64,000 bases of DNA, taken from the IMG/VR virus record IMGVR_UViG_3300025133_000019. One strand, written 5' to 3'. The DNA comes from a virus. Taxonomy: Duplodnaviria > Heunggongvirae > Uroviricota > Caudoviricetes. Below are positions 10,413 through 56,638 of the stretch, one piece after another. A program made the translations under genes and the position numbers. How positions within the stretch are numbered: position 1 is the stretch's first letter; each line of letters starts with the position of its first letter. A model generated the notes under the pieces. That model did no database searches. It was given only the letters and a program-made list of their open reading frames with translations, and was not told the DNA's origin.

Positions 10413-10451
10413 GCCGGATTAGCTTAGTTGGCTAGAGCGCACCGTTCAATA
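10413..10451 (+). tRNA. 5' half of a class II tRNA-Leu(CAA)-like gene: acceptor GCCGGAT, D-arm, anticodon stem CACCG and loop TTCAATA
   Basis: A canonical 5' half folded by hand. The remainder is displaced by an insertion, and the matching 3' half lies at 11868-11925. Confidence 0.5.
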
Positions 10452-11867: not shown

Positions 11868-11925
11868 TCAACTGTTACTAACCCTGGTAAGGGTGAGGGC
11901 AGCGGTTCGATCCCGTTATTCGGCA
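11868..11925 (+). tRNA. 3' half of the split class II tRNA: variable arm ACCCTGGTAAGGGT, T-arm AGCGG-TTCGATC-CCGTT, acceptor ATTCGGC plus A
   Basis: The acceptor 3' strand pairs 7 of 7 (one G-U) with GCCGGAT at 10413-10419. Confidence 0.5.
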
Positions 11926-27457: not shown

Positions 27458-27545
27458 GGAGGGTTGTCCGAGTGGATTAAGGAGCCAGCCCTGAAACCTG
27501 GAGATCGTGAGTATAAGATCCATCAGTTCGAATCTGATACCCTCC
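27458..27545 (+). tRNA. class II tRNA, probably Ser(UGA), with an irregular anticodon loop
   Basis: Acceptor GGAGGGT/ACCCTCC, T-arm ATCAG-TTCGAAT-CTGAT, 3-bp D stem, long variable arm. The anticodon stem closes only as 4 bp (CCAG/CTGG), leaving an 8-9-nt loop containing TGA. Confidence 0.55.
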
Positions 27546-27555
27546 TTTACAAAAT

Positions 27556-27641
27556 GGAAAGTTGAATGAGTCTGGCTTAAATTGCTTCGCTGCTATCGAA
27601 GATGCTCGCAAGGAACGGGGGTTCGAATCCCCCACTTTCCT
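27556..27641 (+). tRNA. tRNA-Ser(GCU)
   Basis: Acceptor GGAAAGT/ACTTTCC, anticodon stem CTTCG/CGAAG with loop CTGCTAT, T-arm GGGGG-TTCGAAT-CCCCC, long variable arm. Confidence 0.75.
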
Positions 27642-27690
27642 CTAATTCGAGTCTTTTATACTTCTTTTAAGTAGAACCTTACTAAGGAGT

Positions 27691-36640: not shown

Positions 36641-38713
36641 CTATTCGAACGTGTAACCGTAATCTAGGTTACTATATTTCTTTTTGGCTAAAACCCAAAC
36701 TGAGTTTCCGTTAACCTTATCATGGAAATCATTTAATTCTGTTTTCTTAAACCTTAATTTTTGAGGCACAGAAGTATAAGGCGGAGAATAAGTTTGACCT
36801 CTGGAATACAAGTGGGACGCTAGTCCTAGAGTAGGGAGATAGATTTTCTCAAATCCTTTAGCTCTTATAAATTTAATGGATTTTTTAAGGAGTAAATAGG
36901 AAATCTTGTCAACAGGAAAAACTTGCTTCATATTTTCTTTTCCGAATACAGAGGAGAAATCTGTTTGAACTTCGTCGATCCAAACATCTTCATTGTCCTT
37001 ATCCCCAGTAATATCTTTTCCTAGTGTGTATCTGATCCATCCAATTGTTAGATTTCCTTTTATAAACGGATGGCTTGATTGAGAAGTCATGGCATTTATT
37101 TTCTTTCTATTAAGATCGTACAATATTGGAGGAATAATATCTTTAGGGATAACAAGCATCATAACGTGATTTGTGCTAGGAAATATTTTTTGAGCCCCAG
37201 TCCAAGTTTTATGCTTTATCACACTTTTATTCAGAATTATGTTTCTAAATTCTTTTATAGCTTCACTTATTTCTGGATCACTGATGTCTAGAGTTTTTAT
37301 TTCCAATTGTTCTTCTGTCTTGGATATCTCGCTTTTAGGTTGTTTCAAACCTTCTGGGCCAAGTTTCTCTGAGTGAAAACTTCGAGATTCAACTATAAAC
37401 TCCACAGGAATTTTGAATTCAGAATTTAATTTTCCACGGTATTCCTTGATTTTTTGTTGCTGTTCTTGCTTTGATAATTTAGGATCTAGGTTTTGAACAA
37501 ATTTCTTAACAAGAGGAGATACATGAGTTTGATTATATTCCCGGATTAAATTATTTGTGTGTTTGTCTTCTGTTAAATCAAGCTTTTCTATAGTTTCCCA
37601 GCTTACCTCTTCCAATCCACTTTTTTCAAGGTGTCTTACCAAATTGTAAAGAGAAAAAGGTGTGTTTTTTGATATTTCTATTTGCTCAGGGGACTTATGA
37701 GGATCATGAAAGGAAGTTTCAGATAGTTTGTTTTGTAGTTCCTCGGAAATGTATTTTAGATTTCCAGGATCTTTCTCAACAGCTAGCCGAGCCAGTTCTA
37801 AATTATTTTTTAATTCATCAGAAACATATTCTAAATTCCTAGGATCTTCCTCAACCGCAATTTTCGCTAGTTCTAAGTTCCCTTTTAATTCCTCAGAAAC
37901 ATAAAAGAAATTATAAGGCTCTTCCCCAACCGCATACTTAGCTAGCTCTAAATTATTTTTTAATTCATCAGAAACATATTCTAAATTCCTAGGATCTTCC
38001 TCAACCGCAATTTTCGCTAGTTCTAAGTTCCCTTTTAATTCCTCAGAAACATATTCGAAATAGTAAGGACTTTTCCCAACAGCTAGCCGAGCCAGTTCTA
38101 AATTATTTTTTAATTCATCAGAAACATATTCTAAATTCCTAGGATCTTCCTCAACCGCAATTTTCGCTAGTTCTAAGTTCCCTTTTAATTCATCAGAAAC
38201 CTGTCCGAAATTGTCAGGATGTTTGCCAACCGCTAGTTTAGCTAGTTCTAAACTATTTTTCAATTCATCAGAAACATACTGGAAATTCTCAGGGCCTTTC
38301 TCAATCACCCACTTAGTAAACTCTAAATCGTTTCTTAATTCATCAGAAGCATATCCGAAATTTCCAGGGTATGCCTCAACCGCTAGTTTAGCAAATTCTA
38401 AATTGTTTTTTAATTCCTTGGAAACGGACTCGAAAAGATGCGGGTATGCTTTCACTGCCCATGTAGCAAACTCTAAATCGTTTTTTAATTCCTTAGAAAC
38501 ATGTTCGAAATTATAAGGACTCAGCTTAACCGCAATTTTAGCCAGTTCTAAGTCATTTTTTAATTCCTCAGAGACATATCTGAAATTATAAGGATCTTTC
38601 TCAATCATTAATTTAGCTTGTTCTATTTCCTCAGAACTAGCCGAGAATTTTAGTTCTTCTTGAATTAATCTAGATATTTCTTGGTCTATTAATTTCATCT
38701 TAATTCCAATCAA
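36641..38713 (-). CDS. DUF4116-like ~37-aa tandem-repeat protein with a conserved ~330-aa C-terminal domain (690 aa)
   Basis: Repeats of NFxYVSDELKNNLELAKLAV. The C-terminal domain is near-identical to that of the next gene. Confidence 0.65.
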   Translation of the reverse strand: MIGIKMKLIDQEISRLIQEELKFSASSEEIEQAKLMIEKDPYNFRYVSEELKNDLELAKIAVKLSPYNFEHVSKELKNDLEFATWAVKAYPHLFESVSKELKNNLEFAKLAVEAYPGNFGYASDELRNDLEFTKWVIEKGPENFQYVSDELKNSLELAKLAVGKHPDNFGQVSDELKGNLELAKIAVEEDPRNLEYVSDELKNNLELARLAVGKSPYYFEYVSEELKGNLELAKIAVEEDPRNLEYVSDELKNNLELAKYAVGEEPYNFFYVSEELKGNLELAKIAVEEDPRNLEYVSDELKNNLELARLAVEKDPGNLKYISEELQNKLSETSFHDPHKSPEQIEISKNTPFSLYNLVRHLEKSGLEEVSWETIEKLDLTEDKHTNNLIREYNQTHVSPLVKKFVQNLDPKLSKQEQQQKIKEYRGKLNSEFKIPVEFIVESRSFHSEKLGPEGLKQPKSEISKTEEQLEIKTLDISDPEISEAIKEFRNIILNKSVIKHKTWTGAQKIFPSTNHVMMLVIPKDIIPPILYDLNRKKINAMTSQSSHPFIKGNLTIGWIRYTLGKDITGDKDNEDVWIDEVQTDFSSVFGKENMKQVFPVDKISYLLLKKSIKFIRAKGFEKIYLPTLGLASHLYSRGQTYSPPYTSVPQKLRFKKTELNDFHDKVNGNSVWVLAKKKYSNLDYGYTFE
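37690..38640 (-). repeat. tandem ~111-bp coding repeats, several near-identical
   Basis: ttcatcagaaacatattctaaattcctaggatcttcctcaaccgcaattttcgctagttctaagttccc recurs at ~37780, ~37960 and ~38110. Confidence 0.7.
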
Positions 38714-41708
38714 AAATATATCCTGTATCCAGTTTTTTCTTGGCTAAAACCCAAACTTGATTTCCGTCAACTTTTTTGTGAAAACCATTTAATCCCTCTT
38801 TCTTAAACCTCAGTTTTTGTGGGATAGATGTATAAGGAGGAGAATAAGTTTGACCTCTATTATATAAATTAGACGCTAGACTCAGAGTGGGTAAATAAAT
38901 CTTTTCAAATCCTTTAGCCCTTATAAATTTAATGAAGTTTTTCAGGAGTAAGTAAGAGATTTTTTCTATCGGAAAAACTTGTTTCATATTCTCTTTTCCA
39001 AATATATGAGAAAAATCTGTTTGAATCTCGTCAATCCAAACAGACTCATTATCCTTATCCCCAGTAATATCTTTTCCTAGCGAATAACGCACCCATCCTA
39101 TTGTTAAGTTTCCTTTTACGAATGGATGACTGGATTGATTTACCATAGCGTCTATTTTCTTTTCGTTCAATTTGTGTAATTTTGGTGGGATTAGACTTCT
39201 GGGGATTACAAGCATCATAGCGTGGTTCGTGGTAGGAAATATTTTTTGCATCCCAGACCATATAACATGCTTTATCACTCCTTTGTTTAGTATTAAGTTT
39301 CTTAATTCTTTTATTTCCGAGGCTATCTCAGGGTCGCTTATATCTAGAGTTTTGGTCCCTAGGTCTTGTTCATTTCTAGATAAATCTGGTTTAGGCTGTT
39401 TTAAACCTTCGGGCTCAAGTTTCTCGGAGTGAAAGCTACGAGATTCAACTATAAACTCCACAGGAATTTTGAATTCAGAATTTAATTTTCCACGGTATTC
39501 CTTGATTTTTTGTTGTTGCTCGTTTTTTGGTAGACTCTTGTCTAAGTTTTGAACAAATTTCTTAACAAGAGGAGATACATGGGTTTGGTTGTACTCTCTG
39601 ATTAAATTATTTGTGTGCTTGTCTTCTGTTAAATCAAGCTTTTCTATAGTAACCCAATCCACAAACCCAAGATTGTTTTTCTTTAGATATCGTACTAAAT
39701 CATATAAAGAAGCCGGAGTGTTTTTCGAGATTTCTACTTGTTCAGGGGATTTGTGCGGTTTATGGAGAGGATTTTCGGCAAGTTTGTTTAGAATTTCATC
39801 AGAAACAAACTTAAGGTTTTCGTGGCTCTTTTCCACTGCAAATCTAGCCAGTTCTAAGTTCTCTTTCAGTTCATCGGAGGCATACTGGAAGTTAGTATGA
39901 AATTTTTCAATCGCATGCTTAGCGAGGTCGAAATTATTTTTCAATTCATCTGAAACGTACTCAAAATTATAAGGATTTCTATTAATCGCCCGCCAAGCCA
40001 GTTCAAAGTTCCCTCTTAATTCATCGGAAGTATATCGGAAATTGTGAGACCTTTCTTTAACTGCCCATGTAGCAAATGCTAAATTATTTTTTAATTCATC
40101 AGAAACAAATTCGAAATTGCTGGGTTCTAGTTGAATAGCCCATGTAGCCAGATTTACGTCCCCTTTCAATTCATCAGAAACATGCTGGAAATTGTATGGA
40201 TAGTCTTTAATCGCCAGTTTAGCAATCTCTAAGTTATTTTTTAATTCCTCAGAAATAAATTGTAAACTATAAGGATCTTTTTCAATTGCCCACTTAACCA
40301 GTTCGAAATTATTTTTCAACTCATCGGAAATGTTATTGAAATTATAAGAATTTTTTCCAATCGCTAGTTTAGCCAGTTCAAAGTTTCCTTTTAACTCCTC
40401 AGACACATACTGGAAGTTCTTAAAATTTCTTTCAACTGCGTATACAGCCAATGCTAAATTATTCTTCAACTCATTAGAGACTTGCTCGTAATTATAAGAA
40501 CTCTCTCCAACCGCTAGTTTAGCTAGTTCTAAATTATTTTTCAACTCATCGGAAACATACTGGAAGTTATGGGGATTTCTGGTAACAGCGAATTTAGAGA
40601 ACTCTAGGTGCCCTTTCAATTCATCAGAAACGGACTCAAAATTGTGGGGGTCTAATCTAATAGCTATTGTAGCAAGTTCTAGGTTCCCTTTCAACTCATC
40701 AGAAACAGTGCGGAAATTACCGGAAGACTGACTAACCGAAATTCTAGCAAGTTCTAGGTTCCCTTTCAACTCATCAGAAACATTCCAGAAATTAGAAGGA
40801 CTTTTCCCAATCGCATACTTAGCTAGCTCCAGATCCCCTTTCAACTCATCGGAAACATACAAGAAATTCTCAGGATCTTTCCCAACCGCCCACGTAGCAA
40901 ATTCTAAATTTCCTCTCAATTCATCAGAAACAAATTGGAAACTATCAGGATCTTTTCCAATCGCTAGTTTAGCCAGTTCTATATTCCCTCTTAATTCCTC
41001 AGAAACGTATTCAAAATTCTTAGGGCTTTTTTTAACCGCAAGTGTAGCGAGTTCTAGGTTCCCTCTCGATTCCAGGGGGACAAGACGGAAATTGTAAGCG
41101 TATTTTTCGGTTGCGTACTTGGCTAGCTCTATGTTTCCTCTGGCTTCCTCAGAGACGTGCTCAAAATTACCATAATAATAACTAACCGCAAATTTAGCCA
41201 GTTCTAAGTTGCCTTTCAATTTATCGGAAACATGTTGGAAGTTCTTAGGGCTCTTTTCAATCGCTAACTTAGCCAGCTCTAAATTGTTCTTTAACTCATA
41301 GGATACATACCAGTAGTTCTTAGGGCTCTTTTCAATCGAATATTTAGCCAGCTCTAAATTATCCCTCAATTCCTCAGAAACGTGTTGGTAATTATGATAA
41401 TTCTCTGTAATCGCTACTTTAGCCAGTTCTAAGTTATTCTTCAACTCGTCGGACACATACTGAAAATTATAAGTGTTTTCCCCAATCGCAAATTTAGCCA
41501 GTTCTAAATTATTCCTAAGTCTCTCAGAAACATGCTGGAAATTGAAAGTCCCCATTTTAATAGCTAGTTTAGCCAGTTCTAGATTATCTTTATATTCTTC
41601 GGGGAACTTTCCAAAAGAGCGTGAGTCTTTGTTCAGTTCTTTTTTATAGTGATCCAGGCTTTCAGCCAGTCTTACTAATCTAGATATTTCTTGTTCAATG
41701 GATTTCAC
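38700..41708 (-). CDS. DUF4116-like tandem-repeat protein, larger paralog (1002 aa)
   Basis: About 17 repeat units plus the same C-terminal domain (HKSPEQ(I/V)EISKNTP...GQTYSPPYTS). Confidence 0.65.
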   Translation of the reverse strand: MKSIEQEISRLVRLAESLDHYKKELNKDSRSFGKFPEEYKDNLELAKLAIKMGTFNFQHVSERLRNNLELAKFAIGENTYNFQYVSDELKNNLELAKVAITENYHNYQHVSEELRDNLELAKYSIEKSPKNYWYVSYELKNNLELAKLAIEKSPKNFQHVSDKLKGNLELAKFAVSYYYGNFEHVSEEARGNIELAKYATEKYAYNFRLVPLESRGNLELATLAVKKSPKNFEYVSEELRGNIELAKLAIGKDPDSFQFVSDELRGNLEFATWAVGKDPENFLYVSDELKGDLELAKYAIGKSPSNFWNVSDELKGNLELARISVSQSSGNFRTVSDELKGNLELATIAIRLDPHNFESVSDELKGHLEFSKFAVTRNPHNFQYVSDELKNNLELAKLAVGESSYNYEQVSNELKNNLALAVYAVERNFKNFQYVSEELKGNFELAKLAIGKNSYNFNNISDELKNNFELVKWAIEKDPYSLQFISEELKNNLEIAKLAIKDYPYNFQHVSDELKGDVNLATWAIQLEPSNFEFVSDELKNNLAFATWAVKERSHNFRYTSDELRGNFELAWRAINRNPYNFEYVSDELKNNFDLAKHAIEKFHTNFQYASDELKENLELARFAVEKSHENLKFVSDEILNKLAENPLHKPHKSPEQVEISKNTPASLYDLVRYLKKNNLGFVDWVTIEKLDLTEDKHTNNLIREYNQTHVSPLVKKFVQNLDKSLPKNEQQQKIKEYRGKLNSEFKIPVEFIVESRSFHSEKLEPEGLKQPKPDLSRNEQDLGTKTLDISDPEIASEIKELRNLILNKGVIKHVIWSGMQKIFPTTNHAMMLVIPRSLIPPKLHKLNEKKIDAMVNQSSHPFVKGNLTIGWVRYSLGKDITGDKDNESVWIDEIQTDFSHIFGKENMKQVFPIEKISYLLLKNFIKFIRAKGFEKIYLPTLSLASNLYNRGQTYSPPYTSIPQKLRFKKEGLNGFHKKVDGNQVWVLAKKKLDTGYIFDWN

Positions 41709-45329: not shown

Positions 45330-45614
45330 TTGATAACACAAGGAGATATGATGAGTACACAAAAGTTAAAAGAACTAGAACAACTAGAACCAAGATTAAT
45401 AGAGTTGATAAATCAAGTTGGAGCTGGACGAGCCATGAAGCTAGCGCAGCAACAATGGAAGAAGCTTTTGGAGACTTACGGAGGGGAACTTTCGATAGGC
45501 CCTTGTGTGTCTATGCTAGTTCCTTGTGAATGTGAAGTGAGTCCCTATAATTGTGACTGGTGCTGTGGTTCACAACAGGTGACCAGAAAAGTCAAGGAAG
45601 CCAAAAGCAAATAA
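45330..45614 (+). CDS. hypothetical small Cys-rich protein
   Basis: 94-aa ORF with SD AAGGAG. Confidence 0.4.
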   Translation: MITQGDMMSTQKLKELEQLEPRLIELINQVGAGRAMKLAQQQWKKLLETYGGELSIGPCVSMLVPCECEVSPYNCDWCCGSQQVTRKVKEAKSK

Positions 45615-45676
45615 ACCGGGATTACAAAGAGTTAAATTCTTGTTAATACAAAGAAACCGGGATTAAGAAAGGTATT

Positions 45677-46054
45677 ATGCAAAGAAAAGTAATATTAGCA
45701 GAACAGCCTAAGGACTCTATTAATATAAATGATCCAGAAATAGATTACCGTTTACTAGTAGCCTTTCGAACCGGAGAGTACCCCACTTTTTTCACGTTTT
45801 CCTTTGGTGGTTATGAAGAAGAGGAGTGGCATTGGATTGCCACTAGTTTTGAGGGTAACTCTACAGGATTCCCTAGTCTACCAGACAAAAAATCGGAGAA
45901 CGGAGGATTAAAGGAAGCTGTCAGAACAGTGACTGAAGAAGACCCTGAGGATTGGGAAGTTGTTCTTTATGATACCATGGAACTAAAGCACCAAGCGCTA
46001 ATAGAGTTTATACAATCCAAAGGACCTTACATTATAAAACTTTTCTCGGAGTAA
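45677..46054 (+). CDS. small acidic protein, full-length member of 'family E'
   Basis: Homologous fragments lie at 48147-48300 (N-terminal) and 50033-50268 (C-terminal). Confidence 0.5.
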   Translation: MQRKVILAEQPKDSININDPEIDYRLLVAFRTGEYPTFFTFSFGGYEEEEWHWIATSFEGNSTGFPSLPDKKSENGGLKEAVRTVTEEDPEDWEVVLYDTMELKHQALIEFIQSKGPYIIKLFSE

Positions 46055-46056
46055 CT

Positions 46057-46377
46057 ATGGAATATAATCTAGAAGACCTAGACTGCAACGGAAATCCTTA
46101 TGCTGATGCTATACCGCTAGGAGAGCAGGCCAGTAAAGTTTCTGGTTTTAATAAACCTGTTCACTGGCCTTTTATGCCTGTAATAGGGGAGCGAATTATA
46201 ATAGAATCTGTGAGAGGCCGTTATTCCGAAGAAGTTGTTAAAATAGACTTGGTTAATGAATGGATTCATACTACTCATGAACCTCACAGACATTGGACTT
46301 TTTGTTCTCGTTCGTGGAGTCCTGATAATAGGTTTTCTAGAGACACTTATCAACTCGGAGTAATGGTAAGACCGTGA
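46057..46377 (+). CDS. DLDCNGNPY-family small protein
   Basis: EDLDCNGNPYADAIPLG...KPVHWPFMPVIGERIIIE. Confidence 0.6.
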   Translation: MEYNLEDLDCNGNPYADAIPLGEQASKVSGFNKPVHWPFMPVIGERIIIESVRGRYSEEVVKIDLVNEWIHTTHEPHRHWTFCSRSWSPDNRFSRDTYQLGVMVRP

Positions 46378-47036
46378 GAACAGAGATAGACTTTACACTT
46401 CAAAAGCAGTCAATTCTAGGGGAGTCTCCTTTGGACCCCAATCTTATGTTAGCTGCTAGCAAAGATAGCAAGTTTGTATGGGTGTTCGCACAACCAGGAC
46501 CCAAAAGTTCTATTGTAGCTGAGAAGTTATCCACAACTTTAGAGGTATTGGAATCTGTTTGTCTAGAAGATAAGTATGAAATGCAAGAAATGTTGAAAAT
46601 TTCTCATAAAGAACTTACCATATTGCAATATTCGTTATACCCTATGAAACGTAACGCACTAAAGGATTTTGGAGAGAACAGGGAAGTAAGTGCTCGGTGC
46701 AGCGAACAGGTGCTTGTCAGACGCTCAGATGTCTTATACCATGATGATCCAAGCATAAATCCCTGTAGAGTTCTTATTTATACCAGAGAACTTGCTCCGT
46801 GTACACTTAAATTACCTGGAGCAGAATCTTTAAATTCTCAGGTTCATTTAGTTGACATAAATGGAAATTTGAATTCTCGTATGTATTGGGTGGGGTTTAA
46901 AGAAGAAGGAAGGTTGTCAACTTATTCTTTTTTAGATATACTGGCTGGAATAGGTTATATTAGAAAAGCCTATTTGTATAGTTCTCAAAAAAATATGAAC
47001 AAAGAGATAAAAGTTATAAAACAGGAGTTGAAGTGA
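46374..47036 (+). CDS. hypothetical protein
   Basis: 220-aa ORF. Confidence 0.5.
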   Translation: MRTEIDFTLQKQSILGESPLDPNLMLAASKDSKFVWVFAQPGPKSSIVAEKLSTTLEVLESVCLEDKYEMQEMLKISHKELTILQYSLYPMKRNALKDFGENREVSARCSEQVLVRRSDVLYHDDPSINPCRVLIYTRELAPCTLKLPGAESLNSQVHLVDINGNLNSRMYWVGFKEEGRLSTYSFLDILAGIGYIRKAYLYSSQKNMNKEIKVIKQELK

Positions 47037-47356
47037 GAGATCAAAAGTATAAACTAGAAGACCTGGATTGCAATGGTAACCCTTATCCAGATGCTATACC
47101 ACTGGGCTTGAGTTGTAGAGTTAAACCAGCTCATTGGCCTTTTGTTCCTGGGGAGAGGATTATAATAGAAGTTCCAGATTATAGGAACATAATTAATTAT
47201 TTCTCCGAAGAGGTTATTAAAGTTGATTTATCGCAAATGCGTGTATACACCACTTATGGTGATACTGGAAATTATTGGGGATATACTTTGGATTATTGGG
47301 GTATAGGATATAAATTCTCAAAAGATACAGGACAACCAGGAGTAACAAAGAGATGA
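47033..47356 (+). CDS. DLDCNGNPY-family small protein
   Basis: EDLDCNGNPYPDAIPLG...KPAHWPFVPGERIIIE. Its C-terminal 20 aa are identical to those of the next gene. Confidence 0.6.
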   Translation: MRDQKYKLEDLDCNGNPYPDAIPLGLSCRVKPAHWPFVPGERIIIEVPDYRNIINYFSEEVIKVDLSQMRVYTTYGDTGNYWGYTLDYWGIGYKFSKDTGQPGVTKR

Positions 47357-47688
47357 AATTAGAATATAAACTGGAAGACTTAGACGCTAACGGAACTCCT
47401 TATAGCGATGCGGTTCCTATTGGATCAGAACCTGTAGCTTCAGGGCAAAAACCTGCTCATTGGCCTTTTGTTCCTGTTCCTGGGGAGAGAATTGTAATAG
47501 AACTTCCTAGGAGTTCTGGAACCCTTTATTACTCGGAAGAAGTTGTTAGGGTTGATTTATCACTGAATCATTATAGTGTATATACTACTTATAATCCAGA
47601 AAGTTATTGGGATTATAGCTTGACTTATTGGGGTATAGGATATAAATTCTCAAAAGATACAGGACAACCAGGAGTAACAAAGAGATGA
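47353..47688 (+). CDS. DLDCNGNPY-family small protein
   Basis: EDLDANGTPYSDAVPIG...KPAHWPFVPVPGERIVIE. Confidence 0.6.
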   Translation: MKLEYKLEDLDANGTPYSDAVPIGSEPVASGQKPAHWPFVPVPGERIVIELPRSSGTLYYSEEVVRVDLSLNHYSVYTTYNPESYWDYSLTYWGIGYKFSKDTGQPGVTKR

Positions 47689-47697
47689 AACTAGTAG

Positions 47698-47853
47698 ATA
47701 TGACTAGTGATGATATAAAGTACAATCCAGAAGACTTAGATTGCCTTATAAAGATGCTGTACCTATTTTTATGACATGGCCTTTAAAAGTGGTTATAGGG
47801 GATATAATTGTGAATCCTAAGGGAATAGCTAGTATAAAATTGGAGGGAGAAGA
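47698..47853 (+). pseudogene. decayed DLDCNGNPY-family copy (internal deletion and frameshift)
   Basis: Reads YNPEDLDC in one frame and PYKDAVPI in another. Confidence 0.4.
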
Positions 47854-48105
47854 ATGAGCGCAACTTTTTTAGGTATATACGGATACTTTCTTTCAAGCTT
47901 GTTTTTTATTTCAGTATGCGCTTTTTTTGACAAAAAGTGGCCCATAGAGTCCAGGAAGGACTTGGCGATTCTCACCTTAGCGGGTGGGATTGCCCTTTGT
48001 CTTTTGCCAATAACGTGTATTCCTGGGATTAGCGATGAAACCTTTTCATTCCAGGAATCAGTTGAATATTGGGTTTATGAATTTCCGTGGGAACAAGAAA
48101 GTTGA
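47854..48105 (+). CDS. small membrane protein, YWFxEYP-family
   Basis: Two TM helices and a C-terminal EYWVYEFPW. Confidence 0.5.
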   Translation: MSATFLGIYGYFLSSLFFISVCAFFDKKWPIESRKDLAILTLAGGIALCLLPITCIPGISDETFSFQESVEYWVYEFPWEQES

Positions 48106-48146
48106 CTCGTACTGGTTACTGTGCCATAATACAAATAAGGAGTAAT

Positions 48147-48300
48147 AATGCCTAGAAAAATATTTTTTCCAGAAACACCTGATAATTCTGTTAGTATAGA
48201 GAGTCCAGAGATGGACTTTAGACTAATAGTAGCGTATCGTAGGGGAAAGTTCCCCACTTTTAACACTGTTGTTTATAGTGGGTTCACAACAGCTAACTAA
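48147..48300 (+). CDS. family E N-terminal fragment (51 aa)
   Basis: SD AAGGAG. Sequence PEMDFRLIVAYRRGKFPTF is homologous to the N-terminus of the 45677 gene. Confidence 0.4.
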
Positions 48301-50030
48301 AAATCTTGATATTTACAGACAAATCCTGTAAAATCAATTTCAATTGAAACACCTGACAATTTAATTATATAAATCGCTTTAAACATTCAAATGAATAAAG
48401 ATCTAACACTAACCCTAGAATCCAAGATCCCAAATCTTGGAGACACATATCAAAAACTGGAGTCATACTCCAGTTTTTACGGTCATCTGGAAAGAATTCT
48501 TTTTCAAATTCTAGTAAAAACCCCTGTAATTGATTCTGAGTTCAGAAAAAACTTGAAAAAAAAGTTTCACTCGTAAATATAATATTCAAGCAAGAATTTT
48601 TAATGCGCTTTGGATTCAAGTTAAAGGTAAATTAGATTCTTTTAAAGAGAGCAAGAAAAGGGAAGAAAAACAACTAAAATCTAAAATAAAAAATTTAAAA
48701 TCTGGCATCAAAAAAGTTAGTAAAGAGCTTGATAACAAGAAAAGAAAACATGGTAAAGGATTCATTAAGCTAAAACCTCATGAAATTAAGCTCAAAAGAC
48801 AAAAGCTTCATTTCCAGAACTCAAAACTAAACAAACTAGAAAATTTTGTTAAAAACAAGAATCTAACATTTGGCGGTTATTCCTTTTTCTTAAAACAGTA
48901 TACTAACCCGGAATATATAGAAAATCATGATTCCTGGTTAACCGAGTGGAAAAGACGGAGAAACAACCACTTTTACTTCATAGGAAGTAAAGACGAGGTC
49001 AGCCAAAATCAACATTCCCAATATAATTTAGATGAAACTGGATTAGAAACACTTAGATTAACTCTTCCTTATCACGTAGAAAAAGAGTTAGGAAAACATC
49101 TTGTTATCCCGGTTAAATTCAGTTCTCACCTGGAAAAGAAAAACGAAAGATACTACAATTACTTTCAGGAAGCAAGAAATCAAAAAGTAGCTTTAAGTTA
49201 TAATTTTTTAAAAAGAGAAAACGGAGTTTGGTATGTTCAAGTAACTTTTAGTATAAAAAAGAAAGTTTATGAAAATAAAAATGGATTTATAGGAATAGAT
49301 TTAAACTACGATCTCATAGCTACTGCTAGTAGCAATAGCTCCGGGAATTACGTTGGATTTAAAAACTACAATTTTAATTCAGAAAACAAAACTGCTGGTC
49401 AAACCAAAAATGAACTTTCCCTTATAATTAACGAAATAGTTAAACTAGCAAAACAAGAGAGCCGGGGAATAGTTATAGAAAAACTGGATTTCAGTAATTT
49501 GAAATTAAAACCGAGATCCAAAACTACTAACAGGAAATTAAACCTGATTCAATATTCAGTTTTCAGAGTTTTATTGGAATCTAGATGCCTAAAACAAGGT
49601 GTACAATTAAAGTTAGTGAATCCAGCTTACACCTCGGTCATAGGAAAATATAAATATGCTAAAAGGTATGGGATAAATTCTCATACCTCAGCAGCATTAG
49701 TAATAGCCCGAAGGGGCTTTTACTCGGCTAAAGAGAGATTACCTGTTCAGTTGACCGATATCCTCCGCAGAGGAGAAGAACAAAAATTTGAAAAAATTTT
49801 TAGATATCGACACCACTGGAGCGCTTGGAATTATCTCTCTAAAAATCTTGAAAAATGTTTGAAGTATGTTATAATGATATACGGAGATTCTTTTAATACT
49901 GGAAATAATTTTAGAATTACGGAAGGAATTAACATGAACTATCTAACCTCAAGATTTAATCCTGAGAAGAAGTCGTTCCTTCTTAGGTATCACGGATTTT
50001 CTGCGAATCAGGAAACGCCATGATTTTTTT
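48301..50030 (+). mobile_element. TnpB-like insertion element, copy 3 (approximate), splitting a family E gene
   Basis: Flanked by the N- and C-terminal family E fragments. The TnpB stop lies within ~8 nt of the right boundary. Confidence 0.5.
48391..50023 (+). pseudogene. divergent TnpB-like protein lacking the zinc finger, frameshifted in an A8 run (48555-48562)
   Basis: Frame 1 runs 48391-48576 and frame 2 runs 48557-50023 with no ATG. RuvC-I IGIDLNYDLIA; RuvC-II IVIEKLD; VNPAYTSVIG without Cys; RuvC-III-like INSHTSAALVIARRG with the Asp replaced. Confidence 0.55.
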
Positions 50031-50032
50031 GA

Positions 50033-50268
50033 ACGGTTTGGTTTACGCCTGATTTTAAGAGTTGTTCTGACGGTTTCAATGAGCAGGAGTACTATGAACA
50101 CAGCTCCGAATCAACGGGCAGAGAAGGTTTAAAAGAGACTATTCAACATCTTACCAGAATAGACCCTAGTGAATGGGAAGTCGTGTTACACGACAATTTA
50201 GTAGAGAAGTACGAAACTATGTTGAAATTTATAAAAGACCATAATTTATCAGTAAATTCAAATCATTA
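50033..50268 (+). pseudogene. family E C-terminal remnant without a start codon
   Basis: EWEVVLHDNLVEKYETMLKFIKDHN aligns with DWEVVLYDTMELKHQALIEFIQSKG of the 45677 gene. Confidence 0.4.
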
Positions 50269-50279
50269 AGGGAGATGTA

Positions 50280-50576
50280 ATGTTGGAGGAAGTTTACAAT
50301 TTAGTAAAAGAAAATCGTATTGATGCAGCTATAGATGTAGCCTTTGAAGGTGTAGATAACTTATGTTCTGCTGAAGACTTTGGAGAAGTAGATAAAGTTT
50401 TAAAAAGTTTGGACCTAGTTAAACTAGATATAAATTTAACTGTCGCTTTTTTATCTATAACTCTAGCAGCAAAAGACGAGTTAAAATACAGAGAAACCTT
50501 TTACGAAAGATGCCGAGAAAGACTGTTAGTTTTATGTCCGGAAAGGTTAGATAAGGTTTTGGGTGGATTGAGGTAA
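50280..50576 (+). CDS. hypothetical protein
   Basis: 98-aa ORF. Confidence 0.4.
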   Translation: MLEEVYNLVKENRIDAAIDVAFEGVDNLCSAEDFGEVDKVLKSLDLVKLDINLTVAFLSITLAAKDELKYRETFYERCRERLLVLCPERLDKVLGGLR

Positions 50577-50854
50577 TGGATATTATAATTACTATTTTGG
50601 GTTGGTATCTTTTTGGCCATTTGATAATAGGATTTTTGACTTTGCTCTCGGTGCTTTTCTTAAATGCGGACGGCGGTTTTGGTGCAAAGGAATTTTCTTG
50701 CGTTTTCGGGACCTGCGTTATATTAGGGCCTATTTCTACTATACTTACTACTCTAGCTATTCTTGATGAAGAGGGTTTGCTCACTAGACAGTTTAAAGTA
50801 GCTTTAAATTATTGGTTTTTTAGGTTACCTAAAAAATATTTGTTTAGAGGTTGA
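50576..50854 (+). CDS. small membrane protein, YWFxEYP-family
   Basis: TM helices and a C-terminal NYWFFRLPKKY. Confidence 0.5.
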   Translation: MDIIITILGWYLFGHLIIGFLTLLSVLFLNADGGFGAKEFSCVFGTCVILGPISTILTTLAILDEEGLLTRQFKVALNYWFFRLPKKYLFRG

Positions 50855-50867
50855 AGAAGGAGTTTTA

Positions 50868-51236
50868 ATGGGCAATCATCCAAGTTTTGTTTTATATTAC
50901 GGAGTTACAGCAGGGGAATTAGTTTCTGAATACGACAGTGACTTAGAAGAAATAGTATTCGAGTTTGACGGGAAACCAGTCGTGTATGATGAGGGGAATG
51001 GAACAGGTTTACCAGAGGAATTATCCGATTTATGTATTACCTGTCCTATAAGGTTTTGTGATGATCCTGGTGAAGAAACAGTTGTTGGATTCAGGGTATT
51101 TGGAGTTGACGGGTCTTGTGAATTAGTTAGTGATGTCACTATAGATCAAGAAAAATTAATGGAGTTTGAAGAGCTGTTTAGTAGGATTAACACAGAGCTT
51201 AGCCCTAGGCTTATTGGGATGGTGGATGTGTCATGA
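50868..51236 (+). CDS. acidic hypothetical protein
   Basis: 122-aa ORF. Confidence 0.4.
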   Translation: MGNHPSFVLYYGVTAGELVSEYDSDLEEIVFEFDGKPVVYDEGNGTGLPEELSDLCITCPIRFCDDPGEETVVGFRVFGVDGSCELVSDVTIDQEKLMEFEELFSRINTELSPRLIGMVDVS

Positions 51237-51442
51237 GTAGAGGCATCCCAACAAAGATGACACTACGAGAGTTTATTATCAAAATAATGACTAAATATCC
51301 TGATTACTTAGAGGATGAATTAAGCTTCAGTACTTATGTAAAGAACGGTGATTCAGTTGACTCGGAGTTCAGAGAAATAAGTGAGTGTGGAATGGGATTT
51401 TGCACTATTGTTTTAGATCAGAAAGAAGAAGAGGAAGAGTGA
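51233..51442 (+). CDS. hypothetical small protein
   Basis: 69-aa ORF with overlapping start and stop. Confidence 0.35.
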   Translation: MSRGIPTKMTLREFIIKIMTKYPDYLEDELSFSTYVKNGDSVDSEFREISECGMGFCTIVLDQKEEEEE

Positions 51443-51766
51443 GTGGGAATCTATAACGAGTTTTCTGTTATAATAGGGGTTTGTTCTGGTGAAGTCATTC
51501 AAGAGACAAAAACTGTGCTAACAGTTTTTGGGAATAAAGTTGAGTACCCCGAAGATTATTTAGAAGAAAAAGGATTAGAGGCAGTCACTTCTTATAACGG
51601 GGAGTATCTTTATGTGGGCCACATGATTAAAAGGCTAACTGAAGAGGACTCTGGAACATTAACCAGAGATGAATTAGATGAAGTTTTTTCATTAGCTCAA
51701 TCTAAATTCGAGTCAGAAGGATACACCGGGCCACTGCGATTGATATATTGTTGGGAGCAGCATTAA
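51443..51766 (+). CDS. hypothetical protein
   Basis: 107-aa ORF. Confidence 0.4.
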   Translation: MGIYNEFSVIIGVCSGEVIQETKTVLTVFGNKVEYPEDYLEEKGLEAVTSYNGEYLYVGHMIKRLTEEDSGTLTRDELDEVFSLAQSKFESEGYTGPLRLIYCWEQH

Positions 51767-51787: not shown

Positions 51788-52009
51788 GTGAGCATAAAAG
51801 TTATAGACGGCAAAGAATATCACATCGAAGATTTAGATCCCTACGGAAATCCCTATGAAAATATGTTACCAACAGAAGAAAGCACCGCTGAGTCCATGAG
51901 CTACATGATATCCGATAATATAGTAACTAACTTTTATACCGGAGAAAAGTGGTTTTTAACCAAAAAAGATGATGTTTATAGTTACATTAGTGAAAAGAAT
52001 CTGGTTTAG
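51788..52009 (+). CDS. divergent DLDCNGNPY-family member
   Basis: IEDLDPYGNPYENMLP. Confidence 0.4.
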   Translation: MSIKVIDGKEYHIEDLDPYGNPYENMLPTEESTAESMSYMISDNIVTNFYTGEKWFLTKKDDVYSYISEKNLV

Positions 52010-52047
52010 TTTTAATACTTGGTTTAATACTTGGTTTAATACTAAAC
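52000..52047 (+). repeat. 12-nt tandem repeat (TTAATACTTGGT, ~3 copies)
   Basis: Direct repeats spanning a gene boundary. Confidence 0.7.
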
Positions 52048-52058
52048 AGGAGATCTTT

Positions 52059-52328
52059 ATGGAAACCTCAAGAAAAGTTGTAATAACAAATCGAAATAAA
52101 TTGGGAATAGATTCTGAATACCTAGACTTAACTTTATCCCTAGCCTTTAGTCCAGACCACCACTACAAAGAATTTTCTTGTGCCCACCACAATAACACTT
52201 TTTCAATATTTAGCTCAGAAGATGGCTCTTCTGTTGATATAGTAGGGGAAGAGGCTATATACAAAGAAATAAAAAATTACTTGACCAAAACTGGCTTATA
52301 CATCAATATGATACTAGAGGAGACCTAG
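52059..52328 (+). CDS. hypothetical protein
   Basis: SD AGGAG and ATG at 52059 (METSRKVV...). Confidence 0.4.
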   Translation: METSRKVVITNRNKLGIDSEYLDLTLSLAFSPDHHYKEFSCAHHNNTFSIFSSEDGSSVDIVGEEAIYKEIKNYLTKTGLYINMILEET

Positions 52329-52665
52329 TTAATACCCTAGATATCTTTGATGATACATATTATTCTAGTGTCCCTGATAAAGGAAAATTTAGGTCTATAA
52401 TAAATATTGGTTCCAAGGAAATTAGCTCCTACGGTGTTGGCAAGTTCGATCTTTGTCAGGTAGTATTATATACTTCTAAAGAGGCATTTTTGTTCTTTAA
52501 GGTTGAAAACAATTCTAGAGTAAGCTGGTACGTTGTGAACGGAACCGGGGCTTTTTCTGACGTTTTAGACAGGATATCTACTCAATTAGGAGATGTTCAA
52601 GAAATTGTTCAGTATAGCGATCATCATAAAAAGTATAAGGAGCTTGCTAACTTTTTAAAGTAGGT

Positions 52666-53040
52666 TTGATGGATATGGAAGAGAAAAAATACAGCCCATG
52701 TGACCTAGACGTTAACGGGAATCCCTATTCCGATGCTATACCACTAGGGGACCAAGAGTTTTCAGCCGAAGAGGATTTTGCTAAAGCGAAAGCAACTACG
52801 GTATCCATATATAAACCAGCTCATTGGCCTTTTATTCCTTCGCCAGGAGAAACTATTGTTATTCAAAGCAGCAGTTCAATGTCTAGTGCAGTAGAGAAAG
52901 TAGTTAAAGTAGATTTAGCTGGAGAGCGTATCTTCACTACTTATACTGGGGTATTGTCATGGCTTTTCGATACCAGATTTTGGAACTCTGGGTTCCAATT
53001 CTCCAGGTATTCCGGCCAAAAAAATATATTAGTAAGGTAA
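52666..53040 (+). CDS. DLDCNGNPY-family small protein
   Basis: CDLDVNGNPYSDAIPLG...KPAHWPFIPSPGETIVIQ. Confidence 0.6.
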   Translation: MMDMEEKKYSPCDLDVNGNPYSDAIPLGDQEFSAEEDFAKAKATTVSIYKPAHWPFIPSPGETIVIQSSSSMSSAVEKVVKVDLAGERIFTTYTGVLSWLFDTRFWNSGFQFSRYSGQKNILVR

Positions 53041-53041
53041 T

Positions 53042-53329
53042 ATGCTGAGTCCTATAGTATCGGTCTTAGAACTATTTCTCGCAGCACATACTGTACTAGG
53101 TCTGCTAGGATTTTTAACAGGCATCTTGGCAGGCAGAGACTATGCACTATCTAGGTCCTTGTTTCAAACGTTCTATCTGTGCATGTTTTTAGGTCCTTTA
53201 GCATTCTTTATTTTCCTCCAGTCGGATAAAAATACTGGCTATAGAGATACTATTTGTGATACTATTAAAGCAGGGCTAGATAAAGTAAGGTATTGGCCTC
53301 TCCAAGAAAAAGTAGAGCTTTATGTCTGA
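53042..53329 (+). CDS. small membrane protein
   Basis: Two or three TM helices. Confidence 0.45.
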   Translation: MLSPIVSVLELFLAAHTVLGLLGFLTGILAGRDYALSRSLFQTFYLCMFLGPLAFFIFLQSDKNTGYRDTICDTIKAGLDKVRYWPLQEKVELYV

Positions 53330-53621
53330 ACATATTTTTTATTATATAGGAAGCTTTGTTACCTATTATTCAATGTTTTCTTTACTAACCGGATTTCTTT
53401 ATGTTTTTTGGGAAGGCCCTTATTTGAAGATACTAGGGAGTATAGAGGAACTGGTTATGAGAATGGTTCTCTGGCCTGTGGCATGGATCACCGCTGTTAT
53501 AAGCATATTCCGGCACGGAATAACTCTTGATTCAGTTAAAATAGTTTTTTCATTCTGGTTTTTGACTGTGCATGAAGCAATCACGGCAAAGAGCAAAAGT
53601 GTTCAAAAAGATAAGAAGTAA
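53322..53621 (+). CDS. small membrane protein
   Basis: TM helices and a C-terminal FSFWFLTVHE. Confidence 0.45.
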   Translation: MSEHIFYYIGSFVTYYSMFSLLTGFLYVFWEGPYLKILGSIEELVMRMVLWPVAWITAVISIFRHGITLDSVKIVFSFWFLTVHEAITAKSKSVQKDKK

Positions 53622-53696
53622 ATTTAAAGAGTTTAAATTCTGGTTATCAGAGTTATTCTTTGATATAATTTACTACCGTTTTAATAAGTAGGTGTA

Positions 53697-53999
53697 ATGA
53701 TTGATACAGCGATTTGGTGGGTAGGAGTTCTCGGGATTCTCCATTTCACAACAGGATTTCTATTGTATGGCGTTATTCTTTTTCTGGATAAGCACACAAT
53801 CTTTTCCCATACCATAGGACACCACTTGCTAGCCTTTGTTGGCTCTGTTCTATTGGGGTTCTTCTGCGTACTCGTTATAGCGGAGCATGTGGTCGAATCC
53901 GAAGAACCCTTAAAAGTTCATTTACAAAAAAGCTTTAAATTCTGGTTTTCAGAGTTCCCTAAGTATTTTATTATGAGGATAAAAGAAAAATGGCTGTAG
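53697..53999 (+). CDS. small membrane protein, YWFxEYP-family
   Basis: C-terminal SFKFWFSEFPKYF. Confidence 0.5.
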   Translation: MIDTAIWWVGVLGILHFTTGFLLYGVILFLDKHTIFSHTIGHHLLAFVGSVLLGFFCVLVIAEHVVESEEPLKVHLQKSFKFWFSEFPKYFIMRIKEKWL

Positions 54000-54226
54000 A
54001 AACCCTATTAATAGCGTGGGGATACGTACTTTCAGGGGTGTTTTCTGTTATCATAATTTATTTCCTCTCCGAAGGTTTCCCAGAAACGAGTAGTTTCGAG
54101 TGGTCAGTTTGTTTTGTGTTGGGTCCTTTTATATTAGCGTTATTTTTTGGATTCTTGGTTTTTGAGCACAGCAACTGTAAACAAGCCTTTGATTACTGGT
54201 TTTATGAGTATCCTATTCATGTTTAG
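53990..54226 (+). CDS. small membrane protein, YWFxEYP-family
   Basis: C-terminal FDYWFYEYPIHV. Confidence 0.5.
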   Translation: MAVETLLIAWGYVLSGVFSVIIIYFLSEGFPETSSFEWSVCFVLGPFILALFFGFLVFEHSNCKQAFDYWFYEYPIHV

Positions 54227-54232
54227 AAAGGT

Positions 54233-54514
54233 ATGATTATGTTAATATATTCTTTGGCAGGAATTGCGGTGTGGATACTGAGCCTGATTTTGTGTAACGA
54301 CGAAGATCTTGATACCCCCTTTTTATGGTTAAGTCCTGGATGGTTTTTTACGGTAGTGGTGTTCTGGCCTATTCATATATTAATGGTTTCTATAGAATTT
54401 ATTAAGAAAAAGTATTACCTTGTTCCCAAGGAAGTTTTGGGGTATCATTGGAAGTCTGCTAATCTTTTTATTACTAGGTTTATTAGGGATATCAAGAGTA
54501 TTTTAGTGTCTTAG
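54233..54514 (+). CDS. small membrane protein
   Basis: Two TM helices. Confidence 0.45.
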   Translation: MIMLIYSLAGIAVWILSLILCNDEDLDTPFLWLSPGWFFTVVVFWPIHILMVSIEFIKKKYYLVPKEVLGYHWKSANLFITRFIRDIKSILVS

Positions 54515-54524
54515 AGAGAAAAAA

Positions 54525-54875
54525 ATGAAAGAGATAGAGGTAAATGGGGAACGCTATAGTCCAGAAGACTTAGATTGCAACGGTAATCCTTACTCGGATG
54601 CGAGACCAGCTAACCAAAGCTCTGTTCTTTCTACTCCCAACTCCCACTGGCCTTTCACGCCAGCTCCGGGTGATATAATCACGATAAGCTCTTATAACAA
54701 TCCAGCCACGTTTGCTGAAGAGGTTTTATCGGTGGATACAGCTAGGTTTGAAATACAGCCCTCAAGGTTTTTAGGGACCTCTAGTTACTGGTGCTTTTGT
54801 TTGACATGCTGGACTAATGGTAGCACTTTTGAAAAGTATGACCCTAACAGTGGGGTAAGAGTTTTAAAATCTTAG
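54525..54875 (+). CDS. DLDCNGNPY-family small protein
   Basis: EDLDCNGNPYSDARP...NSHWPFTPAPGDIITIS. Confidence 0.6.
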   Translation: MKEIEVNGERYSPEDLDCNGNPYSDARPANQSSVLSTPNSHWPFTPAPGDIITISSYNNPATFAEEVLSVDTARFEIQPSRFLGTSSYWCFCLTCWTNGSTFEKYDPNSGVRVLKS

Positions 54876-55615: not shown

Positions 55616-56638
55616 ATGAGTGGATTCCGAAAATTTAATTCTATAAAAGAAGTTGTCCTCCAAAAATACCTTGATCGAGTCTACAGAGAAGGTTATGGAG
55701 ACGAGGTTTTTGTGGTTCTCGAAAAATACCACGGAGCCAACTTCGGTGTAATTGTAGACGACCAAGGGGTCAGGTGTCAATCCAGAGAGCTGTTGTTGGA
55801 AGAGGATGCCAGCTTCTATGATTACGAGCACATACTAGAAAGAGACCGTGAAAAATTCAAACAGGTATTCGATTTCTTTAAATCTTCTTTTCAAGGAGTA
55901 AACTCTATAATTTTATACGGGGAATTAGTAGGCGGGGTCTATGACCATCCCGAGTATAACAAAAAAATAAGGGACAACATAATTCAGCACGAAGTCCACT
56001 ATGCTCCTGACACGGATTGTGTATTCTTTGACATTTTTATTAGAGGGGATAGAGAACACTATCTAAATCACCTTGACGTAGTTACTATGATAAATTCTTA
56101 TGAGCTTAAATACTCAGAAGTTCTGTTTGAGGGAAGTCTTAAGGATTGCTTGGAATTCTCAGCTAAAACTAATGGAGACCCTTCTCTTGGGTTCAAGAAG
56201 TGGGGTTTACCCGAGATAGCTGACAACATCAGAGAGGGTAATGTAATAAAACCATTGAAATCCCTATTTTTCAAAGACGGTAGAAGGATCATTTTTAAGG
56301 ATAAAAATGATAAATTCAGAGAGACCTTGGCAAGAAAGAAGCCGGATCTGGGGGCCACTGAGAGATCAAAGGAAGCCAGAGAACTGATAAAGGACTTTGT
56401 CACGGAAGCTAGGCTCAAAAGTGTTTTAAGCAAGCATTCCAGGTTTAGTCAAAAGGATTTTGGAAAGCTAATGGGACTTTATATGAAAGACGTGATTGAA
56501 GATTTTAGAGATCATTATCCCGATGTTTTTTCTGATACCTCTAAAAAAGAAAGAAGCTCTATCACAAAACATGCTACAGGGTTAGCACAGCGTCTTATAA
56601 TGAGCAGTTTTGCAAAAATTGTAGACGGAACTTACTAA
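55616..56638 (+). CDS. Rnl2-family ATP-dependent RNA ligase
   Basis: Motif I EKYHGANFG (KxHGxN) and motif III ILYGELVGG. About 340 aa, matching the T4 Rnl2 layout. Confidence 0.8.
   Translation: MSGFRKFNSIKEVVLQKYLDRVYREGYGDEVFVVLEKYHGANFGVIVDDQGVRCQSRELLLEEDASFYDYEHILERDREKFKQVFDFFKSSFQGVNSIILYGELVGGVYDHPEYNKKIRDNIIQHEVHYAPDTDCVFFDIFIRGDREHYLNHLDVVTMINSYELKYSEVLFEGSLKDCLEFSAKTNGDPSLGFKKWGLPEIADNIREGNVIKPLKSLFFKDGRRIIFKDKNDKFRETLARKKPDLGATERSKEARELIKDFVTEARLKSVLSKHSRFSQKDFGKLMGLYMKDVIEDFRDHYPDVFSDTSKKERSSITKHATGLAQRLIMSSFAKIVDGTY

Follow-up and report, generated by a model that had tools for sequence, protein, structure and literature searches.

The 64,000-nucleotide stretch of the Caudoviricetes record IMGVR_UViG_3300025133_000019 analysed here (hereafter, the window) contains a small gene that is split by an insert encoding a TnpB-like protein. 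What is this insert, and what does its protein do? In a first-pass annotation, the protein was proposed to have lost its zinc finger and a catalytic residue, and possibly to serve as a domesticated, guide-RNA-directed repressor rather than as a transposon nuclease. The present analysis points instead, with a probability of about 0.8, to a non-autonomous element of the IS607 family, which carries a tnpB gene of the RIIIr-4 clade and a 3′ omega-RNA-like scaffold, and which is probably a dead relic in this genome.

Interruption of a Family-E Gene

The open reading frame (ORF) list of the window includes an intact gene of a small family, termed family E, at 45677-46054 (+ strand), which encodes a protein of 125 amino acids (aa). 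In a tblastn comparison of this protein with the whole window, matches were found at 48148-48285 (46% identity, E 7e-12) and 50039-50236 (35% identity, E 7e-8), and beyond these two there was no other significant match. Pairwise alignments agree with these results, and the homology of the two flanking fragments to this paralog, already suggested in the first-pass annotation, is upheld with coordinates shifted by about 1 nt. The N-terminal part of the split gene (48148-48281, + strand) aligns with residues 1-45 of P0121, a 121-aa protein described below. It is preceded by the Shine-Dalgarno sequence AAGGAG (48138-48143), and its ORF of 50 aa (48148-48300) enters the element and ends at a stop codon at 48298-48300. 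The C-terminal part (50037-50269, + strand), recognized by tblastn, alignments and comparison with P0121, lies in a start-less frame 2 that is open from 50033 to the stop codon at 50267-50269 and reads (V)WFTPDF...NSNH.

When the family-E protein rebuilt without the insert was compared with a large protein collection, P0121 was the single match (55% identity over 98% of the query, E 4e-37). Across the junction P0121 reads ...VYCGIEEWVWLMPDF..., where the window has ...VVYSG, the insert, and VWFTPDF.... Four metagenomic contigs encode P0121; they are syntenic with the window at 44-57 kb, and their downstream genes, including one for a T4 Rnl2-type RNA ligase, are collinear with the window at 50-57 kb. 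The presence of an uninterrupted P0121 gene in syntenic contigs indicates that the family-E gene was split by an insertion, and that its parts are not two chance fragments. The family-E gene of the window is thus interrupted by an insert of about 1755 bp, the bounds of which were taken as about 48282-50036. Exact-pattern scans of viral contigs revealed neither the empty-site allele nor further copies of the left end of the element, a local search for empty sites matching the insertions of relatives gave none, and blastn of the 45-52 kb region against known phages gave no DNA match.

The family-E paralog is followed, at 46057-47688, by tandem paralogs of about 106-111 aa (M..YKLEDLD(C/A)NG.PY.DA(I/V)P(L/I)G...). 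More copies of this family lie downstream, at about 51800-54700, and also in the syntenic contigs L121-L124.

A TnpB-Like Protein with Conserved D-E-H Residues

The tnpB-like gene (48391-50023, + strand), delineated by ORFs, profiles, alignments and an AlphaFold2 model, is read in two frames: frame 1 covers 48391-48576, and frame 2 is open at 48557-50023 with its stop codon at 50021-50023. Removal of one A from a run of eight (A8) joins the frames into a protein of 543 aa, which aligns end to end (98%), across the frameshift, with homologs of 537-549 aa at 60-66% identity. Beyond this set there are more than 200 more distant homologs, several of which are named 'IS605 OrfB' or 'TnpB-related' in their sources. 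In an exhaustive profile search, 3,364 cluster representatives (50% identity) were found at E<=1e-3 and 852 at E<=1e-30. The NCBIfam model TIGR01766 ('IS200/IS605 family accessory protein TnpB-related') matches the 543-aa protein with 46.2 bits (cut-off, 32). Among phage records, only Thermus phage TnpB genes were matched, at 27% identity.

The AlphaFold2 model built from the family alignment has a pLDDT (predicted local distance difference test score) of 82.5, with values below 50 for residues 500-543. The best PDB matches of this model in Foldseek are Cas12f (E 1e-10), Cas12k and CasX, and its core resembles RuvC resolvases. The overall fold would be shared with Cas12f and Cas12k (E 1e-10 to 1e-7, probability 1.0), whereas the identity is about 10-12% and the window protein has neither a CRISPR array nor a zinc finger. 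When the family profile was searched against PDB sequences, no match was significant, so that sequence alone reveals no relative of solved structure.

As first annotated, the protein keeps RuvC-I (IGIDLNYD, with D303; codon 49298-49300) and RuvC-II (VIEKLD, with E363; codon 49478-49480). The stretch in which a zinc finger is expected, VNPAYTSVIGKYKY, has no Cys, and the RuvC-III position is occupied by INSHTSAALVIARRG, in which H431 (codon 49682-49684) stands in place of the RuvC-III Asp of canonical TnpB (DRDxNAAxNI). No variation was seen at D303, E363 or H431 when 25 diverse and 19 closer family members were aligned, and the Cys pairs of the C4 zinc finger, which would lie between RuvC-II and RuvC-III, occur in none of the 25 aligned members. 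IGIDLN (D303) and VIEKLD (E363) align to IGIDLG and VIEDLA of a canonical TnpB, and HTSAALVIARRG, which contains H431, matches DLNAAKNILKQG of a canonical TnpB encoded elsewhere in the window residue for residue. When the family was compared with canonical TnpB using hhalign, RuvC-I and RuvC-II were aligned and the alignment ended before RuvC-III; the equivalence of His and Asp at this position is based on the motif alignment and on the published description of the clade.

A major TnpB clade termed RIIIr-4 has the RuvC-III aspartate 'mutated to histidine' and 'lacks the C4 zinc finger' (Altae-Tran et al., 2023; PMC10691335). This clade is over-represented in viruses, includes members associated with ribbon-helix-helix (RHH)/MazE proteins, and was judged catalytically active since the Asp-to-His change is conserved (PMC10691335). 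By these defining features, the conserved Asp-to-His change and the missing C4 zinc finger, the sequence of the window TnpB matches RIIIr-4. The two also share the conserved D and E residues, a size larger than that of typical TnpB proteins (about 500-550 aa), viral occurrence, a link to serine-recombinase TnpA and, in some members, an upstream RHH-like gene; the window copy differs in that it is frameshifted and stands alone. As D303, E363 and H431 are invariant and no aligned member has a Cys finger, the missing finger and the RuvC-III His are traits of the clade and not signs of decay. The first-pass annotation was right about the absence of both features, but their being losses is not supported.

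IS607-Type Ends and Linkage to TnpA

The insert has ends of the IS607 type. At the left junction, a GG (48280-48281, + strand), the presumed target/core dinucleotide, directly precedes the left end (LE), and GG precedes GTTnnnAACAG in 9/9 left ends compared. The LE (48282-48390, + strand), GTTCACAACAGCTAAC..., is 109 bp long and contains no tnpA; in the LE alignment, GG-T...AACAG-T is invariant, and the left ends of nine loci align as GG followed by GTTnnnAACAGTT(G/A)A. The right end (RE) core (50008-50036, + strand), TCAGGAAACGCCATGATTTTTTTGAACGG, closes with GG, after which T is invariant. In sixteen loci the right ends share ...TT(A/T)TTGAACGG followed by T, similarity ends right after this point, and GAACGGT is invariant in 16/16 REs of relatives. 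Overall, the insert runs from GTTnnnAACAG, preceded by GG, to TTGAACGG, followed by T. Over 30 nt, the stretch 50008-50036 has 90% identity to the RE at 10441-10470, which belongs to the canonical TnpB element of the window. There is a GG at both junctions, with no inverted repeats past GTT/AAC and no target duplication.

IS607 elements insert at GG (PMC6188088), and in CboIStron, a member of the IS607 family, the TnpA target and the transposon-adjacent motif (TAM) of TnpB are both TGGG (PMC10690162). The GG junctions, the lack of duplication and the (T/A)GGG left flank of the window element, which resembles the TGGG of CboIStron, fit these descriptions and indicate ends of the IS607 type. A promoter-like TTGATA-17-TAAAAT is present in the LE (48306-48334), although the count of such sites in the region is not above chance. 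A similar match inside the ORF (49848-49875) was discarded as a chance occurrence, given that it is not conserved in the relative L046 and that the site count does not exceed that of shuffled sequences.

The missing transposase is encoded in relatives of the element. In L002/L046, a 207-aa protein with a MerR-type helix-turn-helix (HTH) and a Resolvase domain is encoded directly upstream of a homolog with 61% identity. This order, with the HTH preceding the resolvase domain, is inverted, as is typical of TnpA in IS607. TnpA is also encoded directly upstream of the homolog in L042, L043, L045, L047, L052 and L004; in L044 another ORF lies between the two, and in L049 (446-1045) the region of the tblastn match contains a stop codon. 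The TnpA-like frame of L049 may be a decayed tnpA, or its recorded coordinates may be off. In all, a TnpA-like match is present in 36/124 fetched loci, and Pfam confirms the domains for L043 and L004. Near-identical REs precede unrelated flanks in L041 and L045, and also in L042, L043 and L046, showing that these elements moved recently.

The window element thus shares with IS607, IS1535 and CboIStron the lack of notable terminal inverted repeats and of target duplication, the GG junctions, a predicted omega-RNA that overlaps the RE and, in its relatives, a TnpA with MerR-type HTH and resolvase domains upstream of tnpB. It differs from IS607-family insertion sequences in having neither tnpA nor a group I intron, and in that its restored targets appear to need GGGG (see below). 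As in IS1341-type solo tnpB elements, which are themselves non-autonomous derivatives of IS200/IS605/IS607, tnpB is the sole gene between the ends and is presumably mobilized in trans, but the ends are of the serine-recombinase (IS607) type and not of the Y1 hairpin type.

The Omega-RNA-Like 3′ Region and the Putative Guide

A conserved region that overlaps the end of the ORF (49936-50036, + strand) was delineated by alignment with relatives and by covariation. It contains the motif GAACnAnCUAA..UCAAGAUUUAAUCC, a hairpin termed P1, a variable hairpin termed P2 and the terminal UUGAACGG. P1 is a 9-bp hairpin in which 49961-49969 pairs with 49979-49987 around the loop AAGUCGUUC (49970-49978). 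Compensatory changes are seen in 7/9 pairs, and 89-91% of cells are paired, compared with 62-65% in shuffles. The covariation score is 0.58-0.61, compared with 0.16 for shuffles (0/500 reach the observed value) and at most 0.18 when the partner is slid. Since G-U pairs are present, P1 would be read on the sense-strand RNA. P2 (about 49990-50026) occurs in every copy, with unrelated sequences and variable length, and is followed by the invariant UUGAACGG. The invariant loop CGUUC could pair with the invariant terminal GAACG. No DNA of the element is better conserved than that encoding the C-terminal residues predicted to be disordered (about 45 residues, pLDDT < 50).

A covariance model of the 3′ RNA (R1), searched over 98 sources, adds only L051, suggesting that this RNA is specific to a subfamily with roughly 39% or more identity. 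No known Rfam family, and no Intron_gpI, was found at 47500-51000 (E<=5) or in the whole window (gathering score); lacking a group I intron, which in IStrons sits at the 5′ end and serves to splice the element from host mRNA, and having an LE of just 109 bp, the element is not an IStron. In layout, with a scaffold over the 3′ end of the ORF and the RE, and with conservation stopping where the guide would start, the predicted RNA is that of TnpB omega-RNAs. At the 3′ end, where the first-pass annotation had suggested looking for an omega-RNA, the covarying P1 is of a kind typical of such RNAs. The first 16-20 nt or so right of the RE (TTTGGTTTACGCCTGA...) would be the putative guide of a read-through omega-RNA. 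A search of the window for a match to this guide gave a negative result: the 20 nt right of the RE occur once, in their own flank only.

A Model of the Element and the Geometry of Excision

These features can be combined in a model in which the life cycle is drawn by analogy with characterized IS607 elements. The element consists of the LE, tnpB, the 3′ omega-RNA-like scaffold and the RE, without a gene for the serine recombinase TnpA. TnpA of related elements, such as those seen in related phage contigs, would excise and integrate it in trans. Integration would occur at G-rich (T/A)GGG...T sites without target duplication. A TnpB-omega-RNA complex, guided by the DNA right of the RE, would cut the empty site beside the GGG motif, after which recombination would copy the element back, resulting in homing or retention. 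The window copy landed in a phage gene that is dispensable and belongs to a paralogous family, splitting that gene, and with the extra A in its A-run it is most likely a recently inactivated relic.

Several points weigh against this reading. The 543-aa protein scores 46.7 bits with NF040570 (guided_TnpB), below the cut-off of 100 bits, and Pfam gives no domain above threshold, TnpB domains included (Cas12f1-like_TNB, 15.6 bits; cut-off, 26.3). The literature searched contains no biochemical test of any D-E-H clade member, and nuclease activity of the D-E-H RuvC site is assumed. Folded as a single sequence, the 3′ region shows no unusual stability (z = -1.15). A tblastn search with TnpA found none anywhere in the 64-kb window, and we infer the mobility of this copy; with only 109 bp between the LE terminus and tnpB and no tnpA in 64 kb, it is a non-autonomous derivative of the IS607 type. 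Finally, removal of the element and one GG (48282-50036, 1755 bp), as in the GG exchange of IS607, does not restore the family-E frame.

The last point concerns the geometry of excision. Removal of 1753 bp, which leaves GGGG, restores the frame as ...YSGVWFTPDF... and fits the VW of P0121. Similar results were obtained at other sites. A solo-TnpB element of the canonical type (10444-11882, - strand; region 10413-11925) interrupts a gene for tRNA-Thr(GGU) within the anticodon loop, with the halves at 10413-10443 and 11883-11925 (+ strand), and the split tRNA folds as a proper tRNA-Thr(GGU) only with CACCCCUGG (GGGG on the other strand). In L045 (2089-2091/4630-4633), only the 4-G reconstruction yields an ORF across the site; L043 is ambiguous. 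The GGGG of restored targets is 2 nt more than a GG exchange leaves (48280-48283/50033-50038 and 10442-10444/11882-11884). Joined element ends would read AAC-GTT, a palindrome, which extends to TGAAC-GTTCA in three elements. In a study of CboIStron, LE and RE dinucleotides were non-matching and the TnpA mechanism was stated to be unresolved (Žedaveinytė et al., PMC10690162). An element end at TTTGG (50041), which would allow an in-frame excision of 1759 bp, was also considered and was rejected because sequence past GAACGGT is unconserved in 16 relatives.

The solo-TnpB element bears on the relationship between ends and nucleases. Its tnpB (10479-11780) encodes an intact protein of 433 aa with HTH_OrfB, OrfB_IS605 and Zn-ribbon domains. 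Its LE, GG followed by GTTAGTAACAGTTGAT, and the last 30 nt or so of its RE (TCAGGAAATGTCATGATTTTATTGAACGG) resemble the ends of the D-E-H element, and its RE is identical over 33 nt to that of L044, a D-E-H-type carrier. These like ends suggest that two TnpB clades use one IS607 chassis. Tentatively, this can be extended to a scheme in which a chassis with the same LE, the same last 30 nt or so of the RE and presumably the same TnpA carries two deeply different RNA-guided nuclease modules with their own scaffolds (the Zn-finger D-E-D TnpB of 10444-11882 and the Zn-finger-less D-E-H TnpB), the D-E-H module is an active homing nuclease and integration involves GGGG, unlike what a simple GG exchange predicts; so complete a scheme is rather doubtful at present. 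If it holds, the D-E-H module would be an uncharacterized RNA-guided homing nuclease whose scaffold (P1, P2 and GAACGG), TAM (NGGG) and guide start can be written down.

The A8 Run: Error, Programmed Slippage or Inactivation

As written, the tnpB-like gene of the window makes only a 61-aa N-terminal peptide. The frame change inside an A8 run, already noticed at first pass, is real and is located at 48556-48563 (+ strand) rather than at 48555-48562. Since the family-length reading requires A7, A8 represents a +1 insertion. At this site the window reads K-N-L-K-K-S-F, compared with K-N-L-K-A-Q/E-F in the family. Inactivation, sequencing error and programmed slippage were all left open in the first-pass annotation, and the results favor the first of these.

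An assembly or sequencing error, in which case the element would carry an intact and active tnpB, is unlikely. Homopolymer indels are a classic error, and the remaining ORF is intact and conserved. However, the contig Ga0098052_1000052 (JGI 3300008050, L125), which differs from window 45391-51576 by 1 mismatch in 6,186 (99.98% identity), has the same A8, although the two assemblies are not proven independent. This near-identical second contig indicates that the frameshift is probably real. Also, runs of 7-8 nt occur elsewhere in the window within open frames that are unbroken; one of these runs, of 8 nt, is in the canonical tnpB. By offset, the 63,883-bp metagenomic contig Ga0098052_1000052 reaches about 35.6 kb past the window end, so that the genome would be at least about 99.6 kb.

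Programmed use of the A8 run, by transcriptional slippage or +1 ribosomal frameshifting that titrates TnpB from a functional gene, seems quite improbable. Consistent with such a mechanism, the break sits in the longest A-run of the gene, A8 recurs in the second contig, and 44/44 family-invariant residues are kept in the 543-aa reading downstream of the break. But at this codon position seven close relatives have AAAGCTCAATTC, or something very close to it, with no A-run, and are read straight through; the site is not a conserved slippery one. In addition, no conserved downstream stimulator was found (an eiav_FSE match of 16 bits is noise), repair of the frame needs the loss of one A and not the usual -1 ribosomal shift, and the break in another tnpB of the window lies in a run of only four A, which is unable to slip. 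The A8 frameshift is thus most likely a real inactivating mutation, and the retention of all family-invariant residues suggests that it is recent.

Domesticated Regulator or Toxin

Domestication as a nuclease-dead, TldR-like derivative whose guide RNA represses a target gene, as put forward at first pass, is unsupported and very improbable. The window protein does share with TldRs a departure from the canonical RuvC-III and zinc-finger region (Wiegand et al., PMC10705468): a zinc finger is absent, the RuvC-III position is not occupied by Asp, and in the window tnpB is not adjoined by tnpA. TldRs, however, are truncated and immobile, have neither the catalytic residues nor a conserved replacement, and are linked to fliC/oppF targets (PMC10705468), whereas the window protein is full length, without C-terminal truncation, and has D, E and H residues that are invariant in the 25 diverse members of a family of about 3,400 representatives; activity was predicted for the published RIIIr-4 clade. 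Transposon ends flank the gene, which is part of a mobile IS607-type element that destroyed its host gene; its relatives adjoin TnpA and occupy varied sites, the putative guide matches only its own flank in the window, and the gene is itself frameshifted. All this points to an insertion of the ordinary kind that is decaying, rather than to a domesticated regulator.

The proposal of a toxin role, with the protein as one half of an RHH/MazE-TnpB toxin-antitoxin-like pair, or of another non-transposon nuclease, recalls the proposed toxin-antitoxin systems among RHH/MazE-associated RIIIr-4 members (PMC10691335) and the small RHH-like ORFs directly upstream of the homologs in L041 and L051 (weak Pfam hints only), but hardly survives, given that the 109-bp LE of the window copy has no RHH-like ORF and that the RHH-bearing L041 has the same LE and RE type and shares its RE with the TnpA-bearing L045. 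These ends suggest that the transposon carries RHH as an accessory. In IS605 elements, promoters are repressed by RHH 'Arc' proteins (bioRxiv 10.64898/2026.09.24.754181).

In L041 (=L001; 1116-1283) and L051 (upstream of 460), the RHH-like small ORF replaces tnpA inside the same LE and RE. Its Pfam support (RelB/Antitox_RHH) is weak for L051 (E 0.03-0.08) and absent for L041. The arrangement recalls both the RHH/MazE-TnpB association and the IS605 'Arc' repressors.

Significance and Genomic Context

As the transposon family and the TnpB clade have already been described and the window copy is probably dead, the element itself has little weight as a discovery. For the D-E-H clade, the set of relatives provides element boundaries, a covarying omega-RNA hairpin, a likely TAM, (T/A)GGG, and the guide start, and intact relatives, P0001 and P0006 among them, now allow the activity of the D-E-H RuvC site to be tested directly. 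As the window also illustrates, several non-autonomous TnpB elements build up in phage genomes, and the same serine-recombinase ends can serve two TnpB clades.

A third tnpB gene, of the canonical type, lies at 4362-5694 (+ strand) and encodes GIDLG, VIEDL, CxxC..CxxC and DRDLNAAKNI. One A too many in the A4 run at 4836-4839 divides this gene into two ORFs; the mended product is 443 aa and 36% identical to the TnpB encoded at 10479-11780. This large phage genome thus holds at least three TnpB elements. Upstream of the third gene is a 450-nt, comparatively GC-rich, non-coding stretch (3913-4361) with no Rfam match, and downstream of it are the palindromes GTAAACTTATA(T/A)GTTTAC (5593-5650).

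PHROG matches to a clamp-loader-like ATPase, an HNH endonuclease, Tpt1 and RNA ligase underlie the phage-like context. At 12750-22585 (+ strand) there are three giant genes in a row, paralogs encoding proteins of 1118, 1272 and 895 aa that all contain a PcfJ-like domain, and at 36641-41708 (- strand) two adjacent DUF4116-repeat proteins (1002 and 690 aa) are encoded. An ORF at 9828-10358 (- strand) resembles, as judged by eye, translation initiation factor IF-3. An HNH endonuclease gene (27458-28467, + strand) lies beside two tRNA-Ser genes, and genes for the T4 Rnl2-type RNA ligase (55616-56638, + strand) and an RNA 2′-phosphotransferase (Tpt1; 61344-62120, + strand) are located further downstream, suggesting a theme of tRNA and RNA repair in this phage-like genome.

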